Notes under the pieces: model-generated
The model's database searches: none
Told to the model about the DNA's origin: nothing
What the model saw: only the letters and a program-made list of their open reading frames with translations
Shown here: piece after piece, positions 1,335-26,538 of the stretch
Layout: every line of letters starts with the position of its first letter
How positions within the stretch are numbered: the first letter of the stretch is position 1
Translations under genes and position numbers: made by a program
Source of the DNA: an uncultured Nitrososphaerales archaeon
GTDB taxonomy: Archaea; Thermoproteota; Nitrososphaeria; Nitrososphaerales; Nitrososphaeraceae
Direction: 5' to 3'
Length of the DNA: 64,000 bases
NCBI GenBank assembly: GCA_963695855.1
Contig: CAVOHZ010000008.1
Coordinates: 288,001 to 352,000, forward strand

Positions 1335-1395
1335 CGAGCCCGTCGGAAGTAACACCAATAGAGCTGCAAAAATAAGAGTCTAATGTGATAGTATA
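1335..1395 (+). repeat. att-like site 1 (degenerate core + arm A)
   Basis: cgagcccgtcggaagt-aacaccaatagagctgcaaaaataagagtctaatgt. Confidence 0.85.
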
Positions 1396-1777: not shown

Positions 1778-2272
1778 AGCCTATCCCAAAATTATTCTCC
1801 TGTAGATAATAATGCTACTTGCTAATTTTACAAGACCCAGATAGTTCTCATCCTTCTTTTCATATCTTGTAAATAACTTCCTCAATCTGTTATGCCATGA
1901 ATTTGTTCTCTCTCTACAACCCATCTTCTTGCTGGATGTTTTCTACGAGATATTTGTTCTTCTCTTCTGTCTCTTATATGGGAAATATATCATCGCTTGA
2001 CAATTTCTTGTTCTATTTCTTTGGAATGATATGCTTTGTCAAGGCACAGGTTCTGTTTGTGTTTATGCTTTGGTTTGGATAATGATGGTCTTTTGATAAC
2101 CATGCTGTCAACTGTATTAATTGCAACAGTGACATCATAGTGAGTTTTTGCAGATGATATACTAGCAGATAGTGGAATACCACCATCTTTATCTGTAAGA
2201 ATCTGCCTTTTGGTTCCTAATTTACTCCTATCTGTAGGATTATGACCAGTCATCGCCCCCCTAAAGGAGATG
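1778..2272 (-). mobile_element. IS5-family transposase 3' remnant fused to the integrase 3' end
   Basis: SPLGG.MTGHNPTDRSKLGTKR, LCLDKAY, and a RWVVERTNSWHNR-type segment; frameshifted. Confidence 0.85.
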
Positions 2273-3544
2273 ATTGAATTTGTTATTCATTTCTTCTCTT
2301 ATTTGTAGAATTTCTTGAGAATGTTTTTCTTCTAATACTATTAACTTTATATCTTCTTGACCTTTAATTTCATCAAATGCTTGCGGCGTTAAAGGATAGC
2401 TACATTTGGAACAGTATTTGTTCTCTATAGCATTAACTAAATCACACCGTGGACAGTTTATGGTTGATGACCTCTTTGTTATTTCACTTGCAGAAATTAT
2501 TCCATTATGTGTTAGAATTTTCTCTTTAAGATCGTTTCCCATTCTTCTCTTTATGTATCTTGTACCCTGCCTTGAATTCATTGACCATCTTACTTTTTTC
2601 TTCAGTGCATATTCTGGCAAATAATCGCTATCAGCTGTTATAGCACTGTGTCTAATACAGTAGGGGTTCCATTTCTTTGTTTTTAACAGATATTCCAGTT
2701 TTTCGTTTTCTGCTGTATCATTAACTTCTCCATTCTTCAACAAACGAATTATTCTTTCACGTAACTGTTTCATCATTTTGTCAATATTGTCTGGAGTTAT
2801 AGGTGAACCATTGATAAGATTACAAATCAGTCTTGCATCTAGTTCATTTCTAAATGGGTGTTCATTTAACCAATCACGAACATAAGGAAACGATATAGTA
2901 AGCAAGATAGGACCTGTTCCTGTTTTAGCTTCATAGGGTATTTCACCTTCACCATAATTTTCTTTTAATCTTACATGTTTTATCTTCAAAAGTGTAATTT
3001 CATGTGGTCTTGCATCTAGGTCCCAAAGTAACGCAAGAATTGCTTTATTTCTTTTGTATGATTCATACTTGATTATGGTTAATAGATCTTCTTTTTCCCA
3101 CAACTCATTTTCAAGATAAGGGCTAATCCTTTTACTTCCTTTCCTCTTTATTCTTACAAATTCAGGTGTTCGCCAATCGGAAAATGGAACATCATCCAGA
3201 GTTTTATCCTTACAGTTGTACATCCATCTGAAAAAATATTTGATCCTGCCAAGATAGTCGTTCCATGTTGTAATCCAGCGTTTGTCTTGATCTGTCTCTA
3301 TACTTTTTATTTGTGTGTCCAAAAAGGGAAATATTTGACTTTTCTCTCTGATTTGATAAAAGGAAACAGGTGATTCAAGGAATTTACTATATGCTATGAT
3401 TGCTTTCAAATTGTTATTCTGATATCTTTCTGATGTGCCAATTCTTTTCATAAAATCATAGAACTGCAATATTAATTGCTTATTTTCTACATTGTGAACA
3501 TCCCTTTCAATATTGCTTACTGTTGTAGAGAGTTTAACTGTCAT
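2261..3544 (-). CDS. Tyrosine recombinase/integrase with C-terminal zinc ribbon (probable start MTVKL at 3544; last residues replaced by IS5 sequence)
   Basis: Catalytic R (DARPHEI), K (EAKTG), YCIRH (HxxR box variant), W (KVRWS), Y (GTRY); CPRC..CSKC ribbon. Confidence 0.9.
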   Translation of the reverse strand: MTVKLSTTVSNIERDVHNVENKQLILQFYDFMKRIGTSERYQNNNLKAIIAYSKFLESPVSFYQIREKSQIFPFLDTQIKSIETDQDKRWITTWNDYLGRIKYFFRWMYNCKDKTLDDVPFSDWRTPEFVRIKRKGSKRISPYLENELWEKEDLLTIIKYESYKRNKAILALLWDLDARPHEITLLKIKHVRLKENYGEGEIPYEAKTGTGPILLTISFPYVRDWLNEHPFRNELDARLICNLINGSPITPDNIDKMMKQLRERIIRLLKNGEVNDTAENEKLEYLLKTKKWNPYCIRHSAITADSDYLPEYALKKKVRWSMNSRQGTRYIKRRMGNDLKEKILTHNGIISASEITKRSSTINCPRCDLVNAIENKYCSKCSYPLTPQAFDEIKGQEDIKLIVLEEKHSQEILQIREEMNNKFNHLL

Positions 3545-3594
3545 TTCTTGAACCTCCTTTTTTGTATGTCTACTATACTGTCGATACTTGTATA

Positions 3595-3658
3595 TGAACC
3601 CGAATACATAACGGGCCCGTCGGGAGTAATACCGATAGCGGTGCAAAAATAAGAGTAT
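3595..3658 (+). repeat. att-like site 2, integrase-proximal
   Basis: tgaacccgaatacata-acgggcccgtcgggagt-aataccgatagcggtgcaaaaataagagt, about 50 bp upstream of the integrase ATG. Confidence 0.9.
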
Positions 3659-4375
3659 ATGAATTATGACCTAGTCTCAATTAATTAGTCTATTTTTTAC
3701 AAAGAAAATAATTATATTATTATATATAGATAGAAACTCAAGACTCTTACTCCAGAGTAGGCGTATTACTATATAGAACCTAAAATATGGATAATTGTAG
3801 ACACTAATAAACTTATTTTATTTAAATACAGAATAAAAAATAAAATTTGTGTACTTGTAAAATAATTAATTAATAAAAAGTAAATTTTAAATATTAAAAA
3901 CATGATTTGATTTTTTCCCTCAGTTCTGCTCCCAACGTTCTGATCTGCTCTGTTTTCTGTGCTTCCACAAAATTAGAAATTGATTGTAGTCATATGCCCA
4001 CTTACGCAAAATGAAGCTATAATTAATGCATTCAATGTTATTTTATTCCCTATCATTTTTTCCACTATTTTCATGCTACTTTATTGAATGCTAAATTTAG
4101 TTATTAAAAATTGATAACTTTTTAACTAATAAGTAGTCACTAAATTTCTAGTATAAATTTAACTATTAAGAACAAAATCTCTTTACTATCAAAACAAATA
4201 TTGTTTATATGGATTTGATGAAGACGAGACTATTCACAATTCATTATAAGATTTTACTATAAAATTTCTTTATATCTTTTTATAGGTAACAATAGTAATT
4301 AAATATTTTATATACCTTCTACCATGCGATAACCTACAAAATATTAAAAATGATATGTACTAAATTTGACGTACG

Positions 4376-5611
4376 TTGAAGATTATCATTAATTATCGTA
4401 TAATTAATTTACTGACAGTTATAGCTTTGTTTTCAATATTGCTATTTAGTAATAACTCACTTCTAAAAACAAATGTGTACAATGAAGAAGACAATTTAAT
4501 CAACTCAATTTTTGCTCAGAATAGAAATGCCTTTGCAGTTGGGATGGATGTTGAAGATGACGAAGAGAAATCGTTTGAGTACATATTTGATCACTTTGAT
4601 TATATAGAAGATGCTGATTCTGAAAAACAATTAGATACGAATACTAACAATAATGGAGAAGATGATATCCAGTCAATAGCAGAAAATGAAGAAACTAGAC
4701 TTTCCCATGATAATAAAGAAGATGAGGATAGATCTACATTTACATCAAAATCAACGGAGAAAGAAGAATCTGACCATAAATCAGATTTCAATTTCGTAGC
4801 TGTAGGAGATTGGGACTGTAACTCTGAAACTGAAGATACTGTGGAAAACATTTTTGACCATGACCCAGAAGTGGTGCTGGCACTAGGAGATCTTTCATAT
4901 AATGGTAGAGCAGAATGTTGGCTGGATATAATTGAACCAATATCAGACAAAACTGAAATTGCAATAGGTAATCACGAAACTGATTCATCAAAAATTTTGA
5001 GGGATTATATACATTATTTTGGATTGGAAAAACAGTACTATTCTTTTAATTATAAAACTGTTCACTTTATAGCATTATCTACAGAAATTCCATATGAAGA
5101 AGGATCACAGCAATATGAATTTGTAGTTCAGGATCTTGAAAAGTATTCTAAAGATCGATCAATTGACTGGATTGTTGCATTTTATCATAGACAAGTATAC
5201 AGTTCTGGAGGTGGCCCTGAGGACGATGATGATTTTAGGGAGACTTATCATCCATTGTTTGATAAATATAGAGTAGATCTAGCTCTGCAAGGCCATTTTC
5301 ATGCCTATGAGAGATCATATCCAATTAGTTTTAATCATGATTATGGCAATGAACCTATAGTTGAGGATTATGATCCCTCATATTACATAAATCCAAAAGG
5401 AACAATTTTTATAACTGCGGGCACAGGAGGAGCACATGGTATGAAGATCTCAGAAACTAAACCCTTTTCTGCTTTTGGATTAGACGGGGAATTTGGAATA
5501 CTAAATATCTCTGTAGAGAATAACGGAATTACATTATCAGGTTCATTTATAGAGAATAATGACGAGGAGGGTGTATATGACCAGTTTCAGATTATTAAAG
5601 ATAATAAATAA
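4376..5611 (+). CDS. Secreted calcineurin-like metallophosphoesterase (purple acid phosphatase-like)
   Basis: Signal peptide; AVGD, LGDLSY, GNHE and GHFHAYER motifs. Confidence 0.9.
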   Translation: MKIIINYRIINLLTVIALFSILLFSNNSLLKTNVYNEEDNLINSIFAQNRNAFAVGMDVEDDEEKSFEYIFDHFDYIEDADSEKQLDTNTNNNGEDDIQSIAENEETRLSHDNKEDEDRSTFTSKSTEKEESDHKSDFNFVAVGDWDCNSETEDTVENIFDHDPEVVLALGDLSYNGRAECWLDIIEPISDKTEIAIGNHETDSSKILRDYIHYFGLEKQYYSFNYKTVHFIALSTEIPYEEGSQQYEFVVQDLEKYSKDRSIDWIVAFYHRQVYSSGGGPEDDDDFRETYHPLFDKYRVDLALQGHFHAYERSYPISFNHDYGNEPIVEDYDPSYYINPKGTIFITAGTGGAHGMKISETKPFSAFGLDGEFGILNISVENNGITLSGSFIENNDEEGVYDQFQIIKDNK

Positions 5612-5904
5612 AAAAGAATTAAAAAAGAATTATAGTTACTTTTTCTACATCAATATTGAGCAGAAAATTTAAATTACAATGAATAAGCCGTCAACCGTAT
5701 GAAATATAGAATAAATTATTATGTTACTCTAGGTATCAAATTTATGGTATCGATATCTTGTTCTGCAGGAAACATTAGAAAACTATATACAGAAATCGCA
5801 TCAAGAAATTTTCCTTCATTCCATGGATTAGAAAGATACGGGGCAGATATTTGAATATCTCGCTCGGCTAAATCTCTTAATTGAACCAAACTCATCTTAC
5901 AAAA

Positions 5905-6125
5905 TTATATTTGTCCAATTATTGACAGTAGATTTTTTTCAGATTTGTCGAGTTGATATGTTTCCATTTTATTGAGGTATTCTTCATATCCTTTTAATTC
6001 TTGAAGCTTTTTTGATTGTTCAATTCCTATTACTGGTAATTCTTTATCAACCAATAATCCTATCTGGGCTAATAAAGAAGCTTGATCCCAATAGACGTAT
6101 TCATGCAATAAAGCGAAAATTTTCC
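5905..6125 (-). pseudogene. C-terminal fragment of a SnoaL/ester-cyclase-like protein, 5' part lost next to site 3
   Basis: HEYVYWDQASLLAQIGLL..LPVIGIEQ resembles the C-terminal motif of that family. Confidence 0.55.
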
Positions 6126-6130
6126 AGGTT

Positions 6131-6191
6131 ATAGTGAACTCTAGAAAAGTACTGACCCGTCGGGAGTGGAATCTTCCATGTAGTAGGGTTC
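6131..6191 (+). repeat. att-like site 3 (left arm + core + arm B)
   Basis: atagtgaactctagaaaagt-actgacccgtcgggagt-ggaatcttccatgtagtagggttc. Confidence 0.9.
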
Positions 6192-6300
6192 TACTACTAA
6201 TGTTAGCTTTTATTATTAGAAAATTGTTTTGATTGAATTAGTAATTATTTTAGCAATTTAAACAATTAAAGTATATATATTTCGGAATGACAAAAATCTC

Positions 6301-7593
6301 GTGTTTTTTATTAATTTTTTAATATTGTTCATATCTTTATTTACCATAAGTTTTTTTTATTCTTTCAATTGTCTTCTCAATATAATACATTTCTATTCTT
6401 TCTCTGTATTGGATTTTATAGTAAACAATTCAAAGTTATTGTTATCAACTAATACAGATGACCATGATTTGTTACAAAATGTAAATGCAGAAAATAATAT
6501 TGAAGATAGAAATTATAGTAGTACCAATCAAATTATTTCAATAAATAAAAATATCACTGATAATAGTAATGTTGTTATTCTTGGTGCCTGGACCCCTATA
6601 AATAATAGTCTTATTCTTCAAAATTTGAAAGGAGAAGAGCAAAAAAATGCAATATACACTCTTCTTAACCAAGGCTTTTATGAATACTACTTTGCCATGA
6701 ATAACTTTGATCATGAATATGCAAAATTAACAGAAGAATTACTAAAATCTGCAGAGAATACTAATCTAAAAATAATAGTAATTCTCCGTCCGCCTTCAGA
6801 AGGTGATTCTAATACAAATTATGACTGGAAAGGATGGATAAAATATTTTAATTCTCTTGAAAAGAAATATCCAAAATCATTTGAAGGATTTACTATAGAC
6901 GATTTTAATTGGAAAAGTACTAGAGAGGAAACAAAATTCAAATTAAATATTGATTTTATGGAATACTCTAAGCTTATTAAAGCCCTTAAAGATAAAGACA
7001 AAGATGTTAAATTTTATCCAACAATATATTTTCAAGGTAAGCGAACTGACAAAGTAGCCAATAAATATGATGATTTTACAGATGGATTAATTGTAGCCAG
7101 TGGATGCTATTACAATGTTTCTACCTTAAAAAAAGAATTTACCATATTTAAAGAAATTTTTGAAAAGCCTATTAGATATGTTGTCTATCCTATTATAACA
7201 TATAATTATTCTAGACAAGGATATAATCCTCCGACAGACCGCCTTATACAGGCTACTTTATCCATAGCATCCAATTCTGCTGATGGACTAATTATTTGGC
7301 GCGATATAGATAAGCCAGTAATACAAGAGTATTTGGATAATCAAGATGATAAAAAATATCTAGCAAAAATATCAAAGATTGAAGAATTGCAGATTAATGA
7401 TGAAAAAATAACTACAGCTAATTCTAAAAAAAAGTTATTGAATACACCAAATGCTGAGCAATATCTTAATTGTCAAGAATGGTCTAACAGATTTAATAAG
7501 GCATATGATAAATGGAAAGATTTATCTCAACAAGAAAAAGAAGAGGACAAATGGAAAAAAGAGATATTACAAATAATAAGGAAAGATAAATAA
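6301..7593 (+). CDS. Secreted hypothetical protein, possibly glycoside hydrolase-like TIM barrel
   Basis: 430 aa ORF, hydrophobic N-terminus, alternating beta/alpha pattern, GFTIDDF motif. Confidence 0.6.
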   Translation: MFFINFLILFISLFTISFFYSFNCLLNIIHFYSFSVLDFIVNNSKLLLSTNTDDHDLLQNVNAENNIEDRNYSSTNQIISINKNITDNSNVVILGAWTPINNSLILQNLKGEEQKNAIYTLLNQGFYEYYFAMNNFDHEYAKLTEELLKSAENTNLKIIVILRPPSEGDSNTNYDWKGWIKYFNSLEKKYPKSFEGFTIDDFNWKSTREETKFKLNIDFMEYSKLIKALKDKDKDVKFYPTIYFQGKRTDKVANKYDDFTDGLIVASGCYYNVSTLKKEFTIFKEIFEKPIRYVVYPIITYNYSRQGYNPPTDRLIQATLSIASNSADGLIIWRDIDKPVIQEYLDNQDDKKYLAKISKIEELQINDEKITTANSKKKLLNTPNAEQYLNCQEWSNRFNKAYDKWKDLSQQEKEEDKWKKEILQIIRKDK

Positions 7594-7690
7594 ATATAAT
7601 ACAGAAAACTAAAATTATCTAGATAGGAAGAATTTATAGTAGTTCTATTAGTCTCTAAAGCAGATTCCGCATAAATAATATTTGTCGCAC

Positions 7691-7753
7691 ATAGTGGACC
7701 TGAGAAAAGTACGGGCCCGTCGAGAGTGGATCCTTCCATGTAGTAGGGTTCAC
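7691..7753 (+). repeat. att-like site 4 (left arm + core + arm B), direct repeat of site 3
   Basis: atagtggacctgagaaaagt-acgggcccgtcgagagt-ggatccttccatgtagtagggttcac. Confidence 0.9.
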
Positions 7754-7924
7754 CCAACTTGTATATAGCTTTTATCATTAGGAACTTAAGTAAAATAATT
7801 GTACAATAACAGACTAATCTTCATTTGGTTCGATAGAATCATCTATAAATTTCAATACAATTGTTTTTCTTTTCTATCAAATATGAAATACTGTTTTATA
7901 CAACATGTGAAATAAAGCATTTTA

Positions 7925-8110
7925 TTGGAACAGAGAAGAATAGGAATAATTTTTATGGTGTTAGGCGCTGTCATGTTGGCAATTCCGTTAATTATAACTA
8001 TAACAGAGAATTCCATTCGAATATTTGTTCCAATGATTGGTTTACTATTTTTATTGTTTGGTTTTCCAATAATATTAAGTAGTAAGAAAGGCAAGAATAT
8101 AGAAAATTAG
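7925..8110 (+). CDS. Small two-TM membrane protein
   Basis: 61 aa with two hydrophobic helices, between sites 4 and 5. Confidence 0.6.
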   Translation: MEQRRIGIIFMVLGAVMLAIPLIITITENSIRIFVPMIGLLFLLFGFPIILSSKKGKNIEN

Positions 8111-8151
8111 ATAAATACAAACAAAATCTTCTACCATGATGAATATACAGA

Positions 8152-8194
8152 ATAATATCGATAGCGGTGCGAAAATAAGAGTCTAATGTATGGT
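8152..8194 (+). repeat. att-like site 5 (arm A only)
   Basis: taatatcgatagcggtgcgaaaataagagtctaatgtatggta. Confidence 0.85.
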
Positions 8195-8435
8195 ACTAAA
8201 GAAGATAATATTTAGGATTTATTTAATCGGTATTTATTATGTTAACATCTTAATTTTATTTTATTTTGTTATTTTTCATATCTAAAAATGCAGAATTGGA
8301 TAATCTCAATTCTATTAGATTTTCCTCCAATTTTAAAAAAAGATTAGACTGTATGAATTTTTCTTACTAACTAATCATAGTAACAATTAGAAAACTTGTT
8401 ATAGGTTGTTATATCATTGTAGATGTTATATTCTT

Positions 8436-8957: not shown

Positions 8958-9682
8958 GGTCCTGTAAAGTTAAAATTATTTTACGCCCAATATTGAAAGG
9001 AATTCCTATCTAATCTTTGTATTATACAGATAAATGAATAACTTGATTCAATTATATACATGTAATATATTGCATTCTTCTCCTTCTGTTTTTCCAGATT
9101 GTTTACATGGATAATAATCATCAAAACATTCTGTCCTATCCTTGAGATACTGCATCACTCTTTCTATCAGACCTTTCTCTAAAGGTGAATGTAGATGATG
9201 TTTTAATCCAATTATATTGCATACTTCTGGATATCATGTTCCACGATCAGTATAAACTGGACGTCTTCCGTATTTCTCAACTAATGATCTAATAAATTTC
9301 TCAGCAACAAGCATATTTCTCTCTTGTAAAATATAGATTCCAAGTACAAATTTGTCAATTGGTTCAATAGAAATCCATAACCAAAAAGTAATGATTTCCT
9401 ATCTGAACAATAGTTTCCTCTATGATGAACGCTTATATTCTTTTTTTCTTGTAAATCTGCAATGAACCAAATCATTGAATCCAGTTTCATACAACAACAT
9501 AACTCCTTTTTTAATCGTTAAAAGGTTACAGTTCTTTTGACGTATTTCGTAGACTGAGATCAAATACAAATACAAAGAGTACATTACAGTGAATGCAGAT
9601 GTTCTATTTCTTTAAAATCTTAACAACATATTTTGTAGTAGAACATTCACAGATATAGTTCCTTCGTTAACTTAACAGAACC
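8958..9682 (-). mobile_element. IS6-family element, pseudogenised
   Basis: TIRs ggtcctgtaaagttaa / ttaacttaacagaacc; VYTDRGT*YPE and KDRTECFDDYYPC segments with stops. Confidence 0.85.
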
Positions 9683-9781
9683 ATCATTTACGTTCAACTA
9701 AATAGTCCAGATCAATAAAAACAGGATCACTGTAAATAAAATTAATGATAATGAGTGGCCCTAAATATTATTTCCTTATTA

Positions 9782-9857
9782 CTATAACATTATACTGTTA
9801 TTTTTGCACCGCTATCGGTATTACTCCCGACTGGCCCGTACTTTTCTAGGGTTCACC
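9782..9857 (-). repeat. att-like site 6 (left arm + core + arm A)
   Basis: Reverse complement gtgaaccctagaaaagt-acgggccagtcgggagt-aataccgatagcggtgcaaaaataacagtataatg. Confidence 0.9.
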
Positions 9858-10400
9858 TCATTTAGATATATTTAGTTAAAGGTAATTAGACGATTCATTA
9901 AGAGATCCGTTGAAATTCTTAAGTTACCATTTGAATTAATGGCTTATAAAATAAGGTTTAAACATATGTCTGTTGCTTTGGCCCAATCAAATAATAGGGT
10001 ATTATACCCCAAATTCTTCAAACATGAAAAATGCTTTTGCTTCCGTCTGATGTATAGAAGATTTTGTATTCTTTAACCACGTAGTGTTCTTAAATCTTTA
10101 ATTGAATTTTCAGGATATTTGAGGATGCAGAAACAGAATCTATGTCTTGACAGGGCATATCATTCCAGAGAAGTAGAACAAGAAATTGTCAAGAGAGGAT
10201 ACATTCCACATATACGACATAGAAGAGAAGAAAAGAAACTGAACAAGAAATATCCTGCAGGAAGACGGGTACTTGAGAGAACAAACTCATGGCATAACAG
10301 ATACAGGAAATTGTTTACAAGATATGAAAAGAAGGTAGAAAACTATCTTGGTCTTGTGCAATTAGCAAATTGCATAATTGTTTATAGGATGATAATTTGG
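9790..10400. repeat. About 610 bp segment with a near-identical inverted copy at about 25835-26455
   Basis: Direct sequence comparison; ORFs 10119+ and 26121- are almost identical. Confidence 0.9.
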
Positions 10401-10405
10401 GTAGA
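10119..10405 (+). mobile_element. IS5-family transposase C-terminal fragment
   Basis: LCLDRAY..RRVLERTNSWHNRYRKLFTRYEK. Confidence 0.85.
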
Positions 10406-10417
10406 TTCTAATTATAG

Positions 10418-10549
10418 TCAAAAACTTTCCCCTTGTTTATTATGATTTTTAATGTGGCATTGGTCAGAACAAAAATAATCATCACATATGTTACAATATA
10501 TTGGATAGTCTTGAATCTTCTTATAGCAGCTCGCACACGTGGTAGCCAT
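10418..10549 (-). CDS. Small zinc-finger protein (43 aa, not in ORF track)
   Basis: MATTCASCYKKIQDYPIYCNICDDYFCSDQCHIKNHNKQGESF; CxxC/CxxC/CxxxC/H pattern. Confidence 0.6.
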   Translation of the reverse strand: MATTCASCYKKIQDYPIYCNICDDYFCSDQCHIKNHNKQGESF

Positions 10550-10767: not shown

Positions 10768-11418
10768 ATGAAAATTGGAATTATTGGAGCAGGTGATGTT
10801 GGCAGCACTCTAGGAAATAGGTGGATAAGAAAAGGAAATCAGATTTTCTTTGGAGTTAGAAACATCAATAGTTCTAAAGTTCAAAATATGTTAAAATCTC
10901 TAGGCTCCGATATTAAAGTTGGAACCATTAGCGAAGCAGCTTCGTTTGGAGATGTAGTAGTACTGTGCGTACCTTGGGAGGCAGCAAAAGAAACTATCGA
11001 AAATGCTGGAGATTTATCTGAAAAGATCTTGGTGGATCTTACTAATCCAATTAGTAAAGATCTAAAAAGTTTAGTAGTCGAACCTTCAACATCAGCTGCT
11101 GAAGAGATTGCAAGATGGTGTAAAGGTTCTAAGGTGGTGAAAGCATTTAATGCCATAGGTGCGAAGACTATGAATGACCTCCAATTTGATTCTTATAGAG
11201 CAGATACTTTTATTTGCGGAGACGATTTTAAAGCAAAATCCGTAGTAACGAAATTAGCAAAAGAAGTAGGTTTTGATGTTGTAGATGTTGGTCCTCTTAT
11301 TAATGCAAGACTGCTGGAACAATTGGCGTTATTGTGGATTGAATTGGTCATTAGACAGAAAATGGGACCAAACATTGCTTTTAAACTCTTGAAAAGAAGA
11401 CCTCGTTTGGAGATGTAG
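10768..11418 (+). CDS. F420-dependent NADP oxidoreductase (F420_oxidored family)
   Basis: GIIGAGDVG Rossmann motif, VDLTNP, VVKAFN, FICGDD. Confidence 0.85.
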   Translation: MKIGIIGAGDVGSTLGNRWIRKGNQIFFGVRNINSSKVQNMLKSLGSDIKVGTISEAASFGDVVVLCVPWEAAKETIENAGDLSEKILVDLTNPISKDLKSLVVEPSTSAAEEIARWCKGSKVVKAFNAIGAKTMNDLQFDSYRADTFICGDDFKAKSVVTKLAKEVGFDVVDVGPLINARLLEQLALLWIELVIRQKMGPNIAFKLLKRRPRLEM

Positions 11419-11861
11419 TAGTACTGTGCGTACCTTGGGAGGCAGCAAAAGAAACTATCGAAAATGCTGGAGATTTATCTGAAAAGATCTTGGTGGATCT
11501 TACTAATCCAATTAGTAAAGATCTAAAAAGTTTAGTAGTCGAACCTTCAACATCAGCTGCTGAAGAGATTGCAAGATGGTGTAAAGGTTCTAAGGTGGTG
11601 AAAGCATTTAATGCCATAGGTGCGAAGACTATGAATGACCTCCAATTTGATTCTTATAGAGCAGATACTTTTATTTGCGGAGACGATTTTAAAGCAAAAT
11701 CCGTAGTAACGAAATTAGCAAAAGAAGTAGGTTTTGATGTTGTAGATGTTGGTCCTCTTATTAATGCAAGACTGCTGGAACAATTGGCGTTATTGTGGAT
11801 TGAATTGGTCATTAGACAGAAAATGGGACCAAACATTGCTTTTAAACTCTTGAAAAGAAGA
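11403..11861 (+). repeat. Tandem duplicate of 10942-11400 (period 461 bp), 3' part of the oxidoreductase gene
   Basis: Appears identical by eye; the second copy ends RRGGM*, the first RRPRLEM*. Confidence 0.95.
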
Positions 11862-11942
11862 GGTGGAATGTAATATTAATTGCATATTTTCTTGTTTTGG
11901 TCATTAATTTCAATATTATTAATCTTTGTAGATAGTTAACAG

Positions 11943-12672
11943 GGTGCTGTTAACTTAAGTTGGTTCGTCTCCTAATTTGAGGGATAGAGTTTCATTTCTC
12001 ATTCCTGAATTATAGAAATATACAAATAATTTCATGCAATTGTAAATATGTGATAGACCACAATTTTTCTTTATTGTTATTGTTCTTACAAGGATAGTAA
12101 TCATCAGAAGATTCAATTCTGTCCTTGAAATATTGCTTTACCCTTTCAATCAAACTCTTTTCTATGGTGAATGCAAGCGATGTTTCAAATGTAAGAAATG
12201 ACATGCTTGTGGATACCAAGTACCACCATCTGTATAAACTATATGTCTTCCATATTTGTCAACCAAAGAATTGATAAAATTATTTGCTACAATCATGTTT
12301 CTCTCTTCTGAAATATAGATTCCAAGTACAGATCTATGAATCGGTTCGATTACAATCCATAACAAAAAATGTTGACCACCAATCTGAATTATAGTTTCAT
12401 CTATGATGAATACAGATATTCTTCTGTGTTTGTTATATATTTGGCATGAACCAAATCGTTGAATCTACTCGCACACAGCAACATAACTTCTTTTTTTGTT
12501 CCTTAAATGGTTCCAATGCATTAGACGTATTTCGTAGACTGAGGCCAAGAAAGTATAGATAAAGAGAATACATTACCATAACTGTGGATGTTCTATTTCT
12601 AATGAATTTAATAAGCATAGATTAGAAATAATACATTAGCATCTAAATCTATTTCCTTAAATTAACAGGTAC
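11943..12672 (-). mobile_element. IS6-family element, frameshifted
   Basis: TIR ggtgctgttaacttaag; [13 protein letters not shown] motif. Confidence 0.85.
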
Positions 12673-14607: not shown

Positions 14608-14881
14608 TATTATCGTTATTCTTAATTCTATTATAAATATCTAAAATAATTAGCTTATTATATGGTAAACTAAAGATGTAAATTTCTATTATACTTCTTA
14701 CCGTCCTTTATATTAGACTTTACCTAAGAAAAGTTATTATCCTTCTTGTTTCCTTTCTAATAAAACATGTAATTTTTCATCATTCATTATCTTTTCAAAT
14801 AAAAAAGGAACATAGAAAACAAGAAGTGACTGATAACTGATAATAAAATCTAAATACAAGATAGTAGTATCTCTACAATAA

Positions 14882-14945
14882 ACTCTTATTTTTGCACCGC
14901 TATCGGTATTACTCCCAACGGGCCCAACGTTTCCTCGGGCACTAC
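14882..14945 (-). repeat. att-like site 9
   Basis: Reverse complement gtgcccgaggaaacgt-tgggcccgttgggagt-aataccgatagcggtgcaaaaataagagt. Confidence 0.9.
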
Positions 14946-15058
14946 TTTGTTTTAGACCCCCTTGAGTTTCTATCTATCTATCTAATGTTGTTATAGTATA
15001 ATGAAATTGAAGATTATATCATTATACATATATAATTTTATTAGTCTAGTAATATGCC

Positions 15059-15262
15059 TTGCGAATGTTAGATAAAACCAATACAGAAAATATCCCTAAT
15101 ACGAGTTGGTGTCCTAGTTGCCTGGAAGAAGGAATTTCTGTTCAATTGGGTCCACGCCTTTACAAGAAAGAGGAATTAATTGATGGTGACCTACCACATG
15201 ATTCTTTTGATTGGCTAGAGTGCCGTGATTGCGGTCATATAGTCAAAGATTATTTTAATTAA
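15059..15262 (+). CDS. Small zinc-ribbon protein
   Basis: WCPSC...LECRDCG; between sites 9 and 10. Confidence 0.7.
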   Translation: MRMLDKTNTENIPNTSWCPSCLEEGISVQLGPRLYKKEELIDGDLPHDSFDWLECRDCGHIVKDYFN

Positions 15263-15317
15263 TTAACTAATTTATTACTCTAGTGATATTTTGTTACCGA
15301 ACATGGATAAGGTAACT

Positions 15318-15359
15318 GTTCAACTCCCGACTGGCCCGTAGTTTTCTACGGCCCACTAT
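15318..15359 (-). repeat. att-like site 10, retains a tRNA-like T-loop
   Basis: Plus strand gttcaactcccgactggcccgta-gttttctacggcccactat. Confidence 0.85.
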
Positions 15360-17526: not shown

Positions 17527-17839
17527 TCTACTGCTATAGAAAAGATCTATAACTTAAATTTTTATACTTGTGATTTTTTATATGATAAAATCTTTTATCT
17601 ATAATTTAGATAGAACAACAAATAATATAAAAACATAATAGATGTTTTCCACTTGCTCCCATTAACTAAATGGAGTCCATACTTCCAAATAGGTATATTT
17701 AATATGTTACTAAAGTACTTTATATTATAAAGATTAAATGGGACCAGATAACTTAAATGGGTTCACTACTGTTGATCAGCTAGATTTGTGGGATTTGAAT
17801 GCTTCTATAAAGTGGGGATAGATATTTTCTAATATTAGT

Positions 17840-18889
17840 TGTTGTACTTACACAGATAGGTAACAGATTCACTTACCAACATGGGTAACACTTTTTATCT
17901 GCTTATTTGTTTTGATATTCTTACAACTATTTAATCTTCCTTTCATAAGAAACATTTCAGATGGTGTGTGACCATTGATTCCACCATGTTCTCTTGTTTC
18001 ATTGTATGCTTTGACAAACATGGAATATCTTCTCTTTCCTTCTTCTCTGTTGGAAATATTTTCTATTGCCAAAAATTCATTTTTGACTATCTTGTTATAT
18101 GCTTCAATTTTACCCTGTAGTTGTGGATATCTAGCAGGTATGGATTTATCTTTAATGTTGTTACGTTGTAGAAAACGTCTGAAGATTTTGGATGTAAGCT
18201 GTTTACCATTATCATGCATTATTTTGTGAGGTTTACCATTCTCTACTATGTAGTCTTCCAGTACCTGTAGTACATCTACACTTCGTTTTCTTTCAGACCA
18301 GTCACTTGTTACCTTTCTTGAACAGTCATCTTCACAACTGATAAAATAGTTCTTTTGAGTAGAATTCTCAAGGTAAAATGGTCCTAAAATGTCCATCTGT
18401 ACCATTTGATTGGGTTTTTCCATTGCAAATCTTTTGTATTTTCTATTTCTGATCTTGCATCTTAGTATGTTCAGTCCATGTCTTTTCAGTATCTTGTAGA
18501 TGGTTTTTGTACTGAAGGAGATATCATTCAGTCGTCTTAACCTGAACCTTATGCGATTGCAACCAAATCTTTTTGTTACACGTAAATCCAATATTTCCTG
18601 TTCTATCTCATTTGTTACTTTTCCAGGTTGTATATTATATGGTTTCCTACTTTTATCCCGTAAACCGTCTATTCCATTCTCAAGGTACCTGTTCTTCCAT
18701 TTGTAGTATGACTTTCTAGATGTATGATATCTATTACAGATATTAGTTACAGTATCTCCAGTCGACTCTTTCTCATGAATTAAATTAAATTTTGTTTGTA
18801 ATTCTATTTTTGTATACACTTCCTAGCAGATTAGGAAGTGTTACCTATCTCGGTAAATGAAATTGTAACCTATGTTGGTAAGTACAACA
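17840..18889 (-). mobile_element. IS481-family element, apparently intact (transposase 17869-18819)
   Basis: Ends tgttgtactta / taagtacaaca, 6-bp TSD attagt (17834-17839, 18890-18895), HTH + rve DDE domain. Confidence 0.92.
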
Positions 18890-19202
18890 ATTAGTTATTA
18901 TATTAATTCTAGTCTACTGAAGAGGATCAAATAAGAAAATGGATAAAGTGAATGAAGATGTTAATGGTGACTTAGCAGATAAACTAATTATGTTATTAGA
19001 AGACTACTAACAATACTAAGAACAAACAATATATTTTATCATATTGTCAAAGATTATAATGAAGTTTAAAAAATAATGTATGTTATTTGTACACAAAAGT
19101 ACTATTTTGCAGCAATGCTAGGACAGTAGGATCTATCCTACCAGCATCGGACATGGTGAAGTAATGAGTTGACGTGTCTGCCTATGCTCCATAGGGTTTA
19201 TT

Positions 19203-19237
19203 CTCTTATTATTGCACCGCTATCGGTGTTACTCCCG
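19203..19237 (-). repeat. att-like site 11 (arm A + part of core)
   Basis: Reverse complement cgggagt-aacaccgatagcggtgcaataataagag. Confidence 0.88.
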
Positions 19238-20570: not shown

Positions 20571-21300
20571 GGCTGTGTTAATTTAAGCAAATAGTTTTAG
20601 CTGTGAACATCCTATCTCTAATAAATGCTTGTTAAATTCATTAGAAATAGAACATCCACAGTTATGGTAAATTATTCTCTTTATCTATTCTTTCTTGGTC
20701 TCAGTCTACGTAATACTTCCAAAACGTTAGTCATATTTAGAGATGAAAAAAGGAGTTATGTTGTTGTATGAAACTGGATTCAATGATTTGGTTCATTGCA
20801 GATTTACAAGAAAAAAAGAATATAAGCGTTCATCATAGAGGAAACTATTGTTCAGATAGGAAATCATTACTTTTTGGTTATGGATTTCTATTGAACCAAT
20901 TGACAAATTTGTGCTTGGAATCTATATTTTACAAGAGAGAAATATGCATGTTGCTGAGAAATTTATTAGATCATTAGTTGAGAAATACGGAAGACGTCCA
21001 GTTTATACTGATCGTGGAACATGATATCCAGAAGTATGCAATATAATTGGATTAAAACATCATCTACATTCACCTTTAGAGGAAAGTCTGATAGAAAGAG
21101 TGATGCAGTATTTCAAGGATAGGACAGAATGTTTTGATGATTATTATCCATGTAAACAATCTGGAAAAACAGAAGGAGAAGAATGCAATATATTACATGT
21201 ATATAATTGAATCAAGTTATTCATTTATCTGTATAATACAAAGATTAGATAGGAATTCCTTTCAATATTGGGCGTAAAATAATTTTAACTTTACAGGACC
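20571..21300 (+). mobile_element. IS6-family element, pseudogenised; 3' 550 bp nearly identical to 8958-9510 in inverted orientation
   Basis: TIRs ggctgtgttaatttaag / ttaactttacaggacc; same internal stops as the 8958 copy. Confidence 0.88.
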
Positions 21301-25833: not shown

Positions 25834-26121
25834 CTATCTCAAAATTATCATCCTATAAACAATTATGCTATTTCCTAATTGCACAAGACCAAGATACTTT
25901 TCTACCTTCTTTTCATATCTTGTAAACAATTTCCTGTATCTGTTATGCCATGAGTTTGTTCTCTCAAGTACCCGTCTTCCTGCAGGATATTTCTTGTTCA
26001 GTTTCTTTTCTTCTCGTCTATGGCGTATATGTGGAATGTATCCTCTCTTGACAATTTCTTGTTCTACTTCTCTGGAATGATATGCCCTGTCAAGACATAG
26101 ATTCTGTTTCTGCATCCTCAA
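25834..26121 (-). mobile_element. IS5-family transposase C-terminal fragment (copy of 10119)
   Basis: Near-identical protein sequence. Confidence 0.85.
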
Positions 26122-26382
26122 ATATCCTGAAAATTCAATTAAAGATTTAAGAACACTACGTGGTTAAAGAATACAAAATCTTCTATACATCAGACGGAAG
26201 CAAAAGCATTTTTCATGTTTGAAGAATTTGGGGTATAATACCCTATTATTTGATTGGGCCAAAGCAACAGACATATGTTTAGACCGAATTTTATAAGTCA
26301 TTAATTCAAATGCTAACTTAAGAATTTCAACGGATCTCTTAATGAATCGTCTAATTACCTTAACTAAATATATCTAAATGAG

Positions 26383-26458
26383 GTGAACCCAAGGAAAGTG
26401 CGGGCACGTCGGGAGTAATACCGATAGCGGTGCAAAAATAAGAGTCTAATGTATGGTA
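26383..26458 (+). repeat. att-like site 13 (left arm + core + arm A)
   Basis: gtgaacccaaggaaagt-gcgggcacgtcgggagt-aataccgatagcggtgcaaaaataagagtctaatgtatggta. Confidence 0.92.
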
Positions 26459-26538
26459 AAAGAGATATTATTTAAGATTTTCTTTACATCTTAATATTGA
26501 TAACAAAGTTGAATTTTACTACTTATTAATATAATATT

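Follow-up and report, generated by a model that had tools for sequence, protein, structure and literature searches.

The 64,000-nucleotide stretch of DNA analysed here, which we call the window, corresponds to positions 288001-352000 of contig C8 in a 3.55-Mb genome (G000:C8:288001-352000). Its G+C content is only 29.7%, and for this reason one recurring GC-rich motif stands out conspicuously from its surroundings. The copy designated site 10 reads GTTCAACTCCCGACTGGCCCGTA; the 21 letters given for it in the preliminary description are exact, and the next two are TA. When the window is searched with the core consensus ACTCCCGACGGGCCCG, eight matches with three or fewer mismatches are found in the 64 kb (Table 1), compared with a mean of 0.01 and a maximum of one in 100 dinucleotide shuffles of the window, none of which reached eight. 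Site 10 departs from this core at a single base, a G to T change at core position 10. Throughout the genome, the core matches 38 times at three or fewer mismatches and 28 times at two or fewer, and a profile that also recognizes half-sites returns 57 matches.

Table 1. Core copies, flanking arms, genes and units. Positions refer to the window unless preceded by C8; core copies in the window come from the core search at three or fewer mismatches.
Feature	Position	Strand	Description
Integrase gene, intact	2261..3544	-	427 aa plus stop; C-terminal four-cysteine zinc ribbon; 80% identical to C8:2892-4172
Core copy	1335..1350	-	2 mismatches; class A left arm; direct repeat with 3612
Core copy	3612..3627	-	only exact core copy in the window; attP-like: class A left arm 3628-~3700, core, integrase-side right arm TTATGTATTCGGGTTCATATAC at 3590-3611
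Core copy	6152..6167	-	2 mismatches; class B left arm, R1-type right arm
Core copy	7712..7727	-	1 mismatch; class B left arm, R1-type right arm
Core copy	9823..9838	+	1 mismatch; class A left arm; R1 arm, then IS5-like element (DDE_Tnp_1_2 ORF 10119-10445)
Core copy	14911..14926	+	2 mismatches; class A left arm
Site 10	15318..15340	+	copy of the tRNA-Lys(UUU) 3' end; core 15323-15338; class C left arm
Core copy	26401..26416	-	1 mismatch; class A left arm; inverted duplicate of the 9823 site and its IS
Left half-site	19219..19237	+	class A arm plus ACTCCCG, unrelated sequence beyond; found by profile from the genome's copies
Class A arm unjoined to Lys core	8150..8215	-	within a ~470-bp module also at C8:22906-23398 and C10:925550-926020
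Unit, 2.3 kb	3612 to 1335	-	integrase gene and IS fragments only; direct core repeats at both ends
Unit, 2.5 kb	6152 to 3612		metallophosphoesterase gene 4376-5611 (+)
Unit, 1.56 kb	7712 to 6152		one ORF of unknown function, 6301-7593 (+)
Unit, 0.4 kb	14911 to site 10		67-aa CxxC...CxxC ORF 15059-15262
Lys cores, first group	C8: 2806 (tRNA), 34057, 43679	+	
Lys cores, second group	C8: 177064, 186975, 220264, 271836, 278684, 279087, 289335, 291612, 294152, 295712	-	
Lys cores, third group	C8: 297823, 302911, 303323	+	
Lys core, last	C8: 314401	-	
Left arm, class A			...TAGACTCTTATTTTTGCACCGCTATCGGTATT
Left arm, class B			...GTAGTAGAACCCTACTACATGGAAGATTCC
Left arm, class C			...ACTCTAGTGATAT...CTGTTCA; site 10
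Left arm, class D			GAGGCAAAAATGCCTCGCAA; joined at CCCGAC
Further left arm			tRNA-Lys itself
Right arms			integrase arm; R1 type TACTTTTCTAGGGTTCAC; R2 type TGCTGATATAAGTGCT

The core proves to be the tail of a tRNA gene. Among the 36 candidates that ARAGORN returned for the whole genome with introns allowed, a single tRNA ends in GGGTTCAACTCCCGACGGGCCCG; it lies at C8:2734-2821 on the plus strand, on the same contig and strand as the window, 285 kb before the window start and 300.5 kb from site 10. The Rfam tRNA model aligns to this gene over its full length (model positions 1-71) and scores 56.8 bits (gathering score 29; E 2.1e-10); the alignment places a 15-nucleotide insert past the anticodon loop CUUUUA. 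We read the anticodon from this alignment as UUU, and thus the gene as tRNA-Lys(UUU) with an intron. ARAGORN mislabelled the gene itself; its equivalents in two related genomes (L040 and L074) were called tRNA-Lys(ttt) with an intron.

The preliminary description had regarded the motif as a tRNA-derived att core copied away from its tRNA, had offered tRNA-Arg and tRNA-Lys as possible sources, and had proposed a search for a tRNA with a matching 3' end. That search is positive by both ARAGORN and Rfam, and the gene that it locates ends in the exact 16-mer and specifies one of the two amino acids named. Because the genome does contain a tRNA with a matching end, the interpretation of the core as a tRNA tail stands. 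The proposed division of the motif into T-loop, T-stem, acceptor and discriminator agrees with the Rfam alignment in its 3' acceptor strand (CGGGCCC) and its discriminator (G), and needs amendment in the 3' T-stem strand, which is CCCGA and not CCGA; the T-loop is TTCAACT. The window was correctly said to hold no complete tRNA: ARAGORN predicts no tRNA gene in it, Rfam returns no match at the gathering score over the 64 kb, and no match appears at E<=1 over positions 1-30000. One further call, 'tRNA-Asp c[601334,60]' at the start of the contig, was rejected as a wrap-around artefact of the circular mode of ARAGORN, and Rfam sees a truncated tRNA at C8:1-65.

Only a short and sharply bounded part of the tRNA-Lys gene has been multiplied. 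Its first 60 nucleotides are single copy in the genome, and the multicopy part comprises only the last 16-21 bases, positions 73-88 in most sites and 68-88 in site 10 and its relatives. Every copy starts at position 68 or 73 and ends at 88. Site 10 is identical to positions 68-88 at 20 of 21 bases, and its identity to the tRNA begins at GTTCA because its left arm belongs to class C.

On either side of the core, the sites of this genome combine at least four left-arm classes with at least three right-arm classes. The right flank TTATGTATTCGGGTTCATATACAAGTATCGACAG directly follows both tRNA-Lys and window site 3612, and an integrase open reading frame (ORF) comes next at both places, about 70 bp past the core in each case (C8:2892-4172 at the tRNA). 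The arrangement at 3612, in which a class A arm, the core and the integrase arm succeed one another, is attP-like, as expected for an attP or for the joint of two tandem elements. The last ~37 nucleotides of the class A arm and the core are well conserved in 49 copies, and the DNA beyond is unrelated; however, only 18 of the 49 carry the Lys core at three or fewer mismatches, and the other 31 leave the core after 0-10 bases. Given these numbers, either the class A arm belongs as a module to an element family that uses several targets, or many of its sites are broken. At C10:640915-644079, a class A arm is joined to ACTCCCTCCGGGGCCCG, an Arg-like core, 3.1 kb downstream of tRNA-Arg(CCT) and on the same strand, and thus the arm module also occurs with the core of another tRNA.

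The way in which sites diverge from one another offers some indication of where strand exchange would fall. The breaks in hybrid sites and half-sites fall to the left or right of CCCGAC(G), which spans core positions 4-9/10, and for this reason we consider this segment the most likely place of exchange. Class D arms share identity only from CCCGAC onward, one class B variant shares it only as far as CCCGAC, and homology to the 6168-7711 unit in other genomes begins at the C of ACTCCCGAC in four matches and 5 nucleotides further in for one. Among the 31 class A arms that lack the full core, identity to the core ends after three bases in eight, after six in five, and after nine or ten in three. 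As we read the alignments, the type of right arm is matched by the mismatches found towards the 3' end of the core.

The gene that adjoins the core at both 3612 and tRNA-Lys belongs to a family that escapes curated models, since all of its matches lie below the cut-offs of Pfam and NCBIfam. The window protein matches PF00589 (Phage_integrase) with E 0.029 and 14.6 bits, where the cut-off is 27.1, and XerA_Arch of NCBIfam with 7e-5 and 22.5 bits, where it is 220. In an alignment of 20 family members, 14 match PF00589 at E<=0.1 (best 3.3e-4), and three models of N-terminal SAM-like integrase domains give eight member-hits (four, three and one members, respectively). The AlphaFold model is mediocre, with a mean pLDDT of 67, a pTM of 0.38 and a catalytic part below pLDDT 50. 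When this model was compared with the PDB by Foldseek, all of the hits among ranks 1-48, with similar chains omitted, were tyrosine recombinases, with XerA (5hxy) best at 8.5e-3 and XerH, IntI, lambda Int, Cre, XerD and Tn1549 Int among the others. By sequence, neither phmmer nor the family profile finds a recombinase in the PDB, and both return only zinc-ribbon ribosomal proteins at E values of 0.25 or worse. Residues R179, K207, R298, H299, W320 and Y330 are invariant in the family alignment, and together with the four-cysteine ribbon they would, in our reading, fit a divergent tyrosine recombinase; the recombinase signals are weak but consistent.

Members of the family are repeatedly located behind tRNA genes. 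Full-length paralogues in this genome lie just 3' of tRNA-Arg(tcg) (C10:1147352-1147426) and tRNA-Val(tac) (C10:1703131-1703207). Eighty related Nitrososphaeraceae loci come from records named Nitrosocosmicus, Nitrosopolaris, Nitrososphaera and others. In 26 of them, a count that also covers loci matched without their N-terminus, a same-strand tRNA for Lys, Arg, Pro or Ala ends no more than 200 nucleotides upstream. Among the closest homologues for which upstream DNA was read, two (L036 and L065) lie behind a real tRNA-Lys(TTT), and six (L013, L014, L016, L064, L072 and L075) are preceded by a core that is identical or one to two bases off and is flanked by non-tRNA arms. A separate motif, GGGTTCATATAC, with the variants GGGCTCATATAC and GGGTTCAAATA, occurs about 10 nucleotides past the tRNA end in most of loci L015-L074 and in L093. 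Integrases with different tRNA targets all retain it in the gap that separates the tRNA from the integrase gene, and it may be an integrase promoter or binding site.

Comparison with related genomes reveals that the core is genus-wide. It is present at one or no mismatch in all 18 same-genus genomes searched, 17 of which carry 2-58 copies and one a single copy, whereas 12 genomes from other genera of the order have zero or one copy each. The arms fall into a few conserved classes that are common to several genomes. What follows the tRNA-Lys gene varies among relatives: at least five different sequences occupy its 3' side in 22 genus loci, in which the integrase arm is found four times, R1 five times, an R2-type arm five times, two other flanks twice each and a contig end four times. 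When window positions 3400-8300 are used as a query against the genus, the similarity ends right at the outer core boundary in 10 matches, and another 12 extend ~30 nucleotides into the class A arm. Contigs from soil and cave metagenomes likewise part from the window exactly at 3611, the core boundary, beyond which they have an R1-type arm. Several contigs of relatives have one of their ends at the core or only one or two bases away from it (for example G012:C15:1-16, G018:C188:1-16, G004:C203:2-17 and G013:C71:2-17), and we conclude from this that the repeat fragments short-read assemblies.

Among public sequencing runs, only Logan contigs of soil and cave metagenomes cover parts of the stretch (best share 0.53), and over the parts covered these metagenome contigs reveal neither an excision product nor a circular form, nor any clean joint at an empty site. 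Joints of positions 3649-3660 to 6203 or to 7756-7762, and of 6197 to 7762, do occur in them; they have foreign letters between the two sides, or sides shorter than 40 nucleotides, and so we rejected them as excision events and take them to be cross-matches of similar arms in other organisms.

We consider it highly probable that the sites are attL, attR or attP-like junctions of small integrative elements that inserted, through site-specific recombination, at the 3' end of the single tRNA-Lys(UUU) gene or at earlier copies of its 16-bp core. A circular element carrying a P-arm, a core and a P'-arm would recombine with a genomic core; this would rebuild the tRNA end and add one extra core copy per event, and repeated events (accretion) would produce arrays of direct repeats. 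Loss of integrase genes would leave short non-autonomous units, and insertion sequence (IS) activity and inversions would have shifted and flipped parts of the array. It is presumably because of such movements that the window sites now lie ~300 kb from the tRNA and in both orientations. Direct core repeats of the attL/attR type indeed surround the integrase gene at 3612 and 1335 on the minus strand, and same-strand runs extend along the contig from C8:2806 to 43679 (plus) and from 177064 to 295712 (minus). With respect to the array suggested in the preliminary description, the tRNA-derived att core is retained, but we read its copies as junctions of several element families rather than the product of one array-building system.

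The units range from 0.4 to 51 kb, the genes of the two cargo units are opposed to the integrase gene, and by hand count about 12 of roughly 22 intervals between same-strand neighbours are under 3.6 kb. Because such intervals are shorter than any autonomous element, serial integration would require either decay or mobilisation in trans. One way to account for them would be an integron-like platform, in which a dedicated integrase captures and shuffles short and mostly single-gene cassettes that carry a tRNA-derived site and are mobilised in trans. The window does contain three successive direct-orientation units of 2.3, 2.5 and 1.56 kb with one gene each, and a fourth of 0.4 kb with its 67-aa ORF; moreover, the core and the adjacent end of the class A arm are conserved beside unrelated DNA in 49 copies, and IntI (2a3v, 2.6e-2) is among the Foldseek fold matches. 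We nevertheless regard this platform as very unlikely. Among the matches listed for window 3400-8300 against 24 other genomes of the genus, no unit is spanned from core to core: the 1.56-kb unit has homology that begins inside one core and ends 60-120 nucleotides before the other, and the 2.5-kb unit is matched over its gene only, which belongs to a multicopy family. Cargo genes come from families that are found elsewhere without sites, they are opposed to the integrase gene, and unit size is far from uniform. There is also no common hairpin, as single-strand DNA folds of eight sites give z-scores from +0.42 to -2.13 with differing structures, and a core behind a real tRNA with an adjacent integrase is the layout of an integrative element and not of an attI. 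Because core-to-core matches are absent from those listed, cargo occurs elsewhere without sites, orientation is mixed and a hairpin is lacking, we interpret the short units either as remnants of integrative elements or as their non-autonomous passengers, which may have been mobilised in trans.

Readings that dispense with a site-specific integrase fare worse still. The region is rich in insertion sequences (DDE_Tnp_1, DDE_Tnp_1_2, DDE_3 and rve ORFs, with dozens of repeat copies) and the class A arm occurs 31 times without a full core, as might be expected if the motif were the end of a transposon or MITE that resembles or prefers tRNA-like sequence and was spread by a transposase. However, at class A sites the two arms have no sequence relationship to each other and are not inverted repeats, and the repeat common to all sites is direct and equals the tRNA end. 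The common block is exactly this 3' end and stops at the last base of the tRNA, the units have no fixed length, no target-site duplication was noticed among the arms compared, and the conserved gene adjoining the core is recombinase-like rather than a DDE transposase, so that we consider transposition an extremely improbable origin. Just as improbable is the view that the sites are decayed tRNA-pseudogene fragments or chance GC-rich matches without any link to mobile elements. Chance is excluded by the eight matches observed against 0.01 expected. A truncated gene copy could resemble site 10 and its class C relatives, whose identity extends over 21 nucleotides into the T-loop, but pseudogenes would not readily account for copies that all begin at one of the same two tRNA positions and end at the same base, or for a few arm classes that are conserved and common to several genomes. 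Furthermore, outside the core the left arms do not resemble the body of the tRNA significantly: their local alignment scores of 11-16 lie within the shuffle range and were matched by 22 to 269 of 300 shuffles.

Serial integration at the tRNA tail leaves room for the idea that, in this genus of soil ammonia oxidisers, the Lys core and its conserved arms are a working exchange system, in which the two intact integrases would move both whole elements and short units that lack an integrase and would invert segments between opposed cores. We think this unlikely on present sequence evidence. If true, the ~300-kb stretch from tRNA-Lys to the window would be a gene-shuffling region, similar in function to an integron or shufflon and built on the tail of a tRNA.

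Several known systems share parts of this organization. ICESt1 and the related CIMEs of Streptococcus thermophilus undergo site-specific accretion, in which integrative and cis-mobilisable elements of bacteria accumulate at tRNA genes or at other att sites. They share with the present loci tandem arrays with direct att repeats at the borders, units without an integrase beside units that bear one and, as proposed here, the use of any att copy by newcomers; in contrast, the host here is an archaeon, the integrase belongs to another family and mobilisation in trans is only putative. Integrons, with their IntI, attI and attC arrays, are reportedly present in archaea as well, examples being attributed to Ghaly and colleagues in 2022. 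They combine a tyrosine recombinase, the probable class of the integrase described here, with a similar series of short gene-bearing units around a recurring site, but the sites described here are tRNA ends, have no attC-type hairpin, exhibit no core-to-core recurrence among the matches listed and accompany genes of mixed orientation.

The closest parallel is provided by the integrated elements of Thaumarchaeota (Krupovic et al., 2019, PMC6563490). According to the main text of that survey, tRNA genes are the insertion sites of 39 of 68 elements, with a single exception in their 3' part; the median att repeat measures 17 bp, and 20 genomes carry 1-8 elements each (median 3). The same text notes that elements with tyrosine recombinases are known to build arrays by using one site repeatedly, and that cryptic integrated elements can be as small as 2.6 kb. 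The elements discussed there and those inferred here have in common insertion in the 3'-distal part of tRNA genes, intron-containing genes included, and short att repeats, which are 16-21 bp in our case; the integrases there are tyrosine recombinases, as the one here probably is. The numbers differ, however: against the 1-8 elements per genome of that account, one core alone is present here in 28 copies at two or fewer mismatches, or up to 57 by profile, several other tRNA ends are present in 9-29 copies, and many units are below 3.6 kb and lack an integrase. Nitrosocosmicus is absent from the main text of the survey, whose supplementary att tables could include related elements. Among the papers listed by our literature search on Nitrosocosmicus integrases at tRNA genes, none treats the subject by title or abstract. 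The 'suicidal' archaeal integrases of the SSV type (PMC7253208) are tyrosine integrases, as the protein here probably is; their genes contain the attP and are split upon integration, whereas here the core lies ~70 bp upstream of an uninterrupted 427-aa ORF. Consequently, the kind of genome scar that we describe is already known, and what is new is its scale in copy number, the genus, and an integrase family that evades curated models. In the genus, probably Candidatus Nitrosocosmicus, att copies derived from tRNA tails greatly outnumber the 1-8 elements per genome given in the main text of the 2019 survey of Thaumarchaeota. A conspicuous GC-rich repeat of an AT-rich genome is now explained, and for annotation the sites can be used as borders of mobile DNA over ~300 kb.

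The tRNA-Lys tail is one of several tRNA ends that are repeated in this genome at 9-29 copies; at two or fewer mismatches, those of Val(tac), Arg(tcg) and Ser(gct) occur 16, 12 and 14 times, respectively. A tRNA-Pro(GGG)-like gene at C8:91508-91603 ends in AATCCCACTGGCCCCA, which is found in 29 copies genome-wide at two or fewer mismatches. Twelve of these form direct repeats from 91588 to 172066, between the first two groups of Lys cores. They lie on the same strand over 80 kb directly downstream of the gene (C8:91508-172081), and constitute a cleaner array than that of Lys.

Rearrangement of the Lys array is evident. Positions 14840-15359, which include site 10, are an inverted copy of C8:278662-279176 at 91.8% identity, and positions 9762-10398 (637 bp) are an inverted copy of 25842-26474 at 96%. 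These duplicates include whole att sites with their arms, which we take as evidence for the copying and inversion of segments that bear sites. At the far end of the contig (C8:601324-601342, minus strand), TTGCAAATATGCCTCTATTTATAT comes after a core that the contig end truncates. The flank TTGCAAATATGCC..., which directly follows tRNA-Lys(UUU) in two relatives (L096 and L113), is found here at this far contig end and on the other strand, and may be the original downstream flank of tRNA-Lys, now ~600 kb away.

The window contains further repeats. Positions 10942-11400 and 11403-11861 form a 459-bp tandem repeat of 100% identity in and after a gene for an F420-dependent NADP oxidoreductase (ORFs 10768-11418 and 11490-11873), which must stem from a duplication that happened very recently or else from an error of assembly. 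A family of ~730-bp repeats, with window members at 8958-9690, 11943-12668 and 20576-21300, numbers roughly 60 copies genome-wide (65-91% identity); it contains nothing but fragments of ORFs and probably represents a decayed IS. Finally, an IS at 17822-18905 encodes a transposase with HTH and rve domains (ORF 17869-18819), and it has probably been active recently, because at least seven other copies with ~99% identity over ~1.06 kb are present on five contigs.
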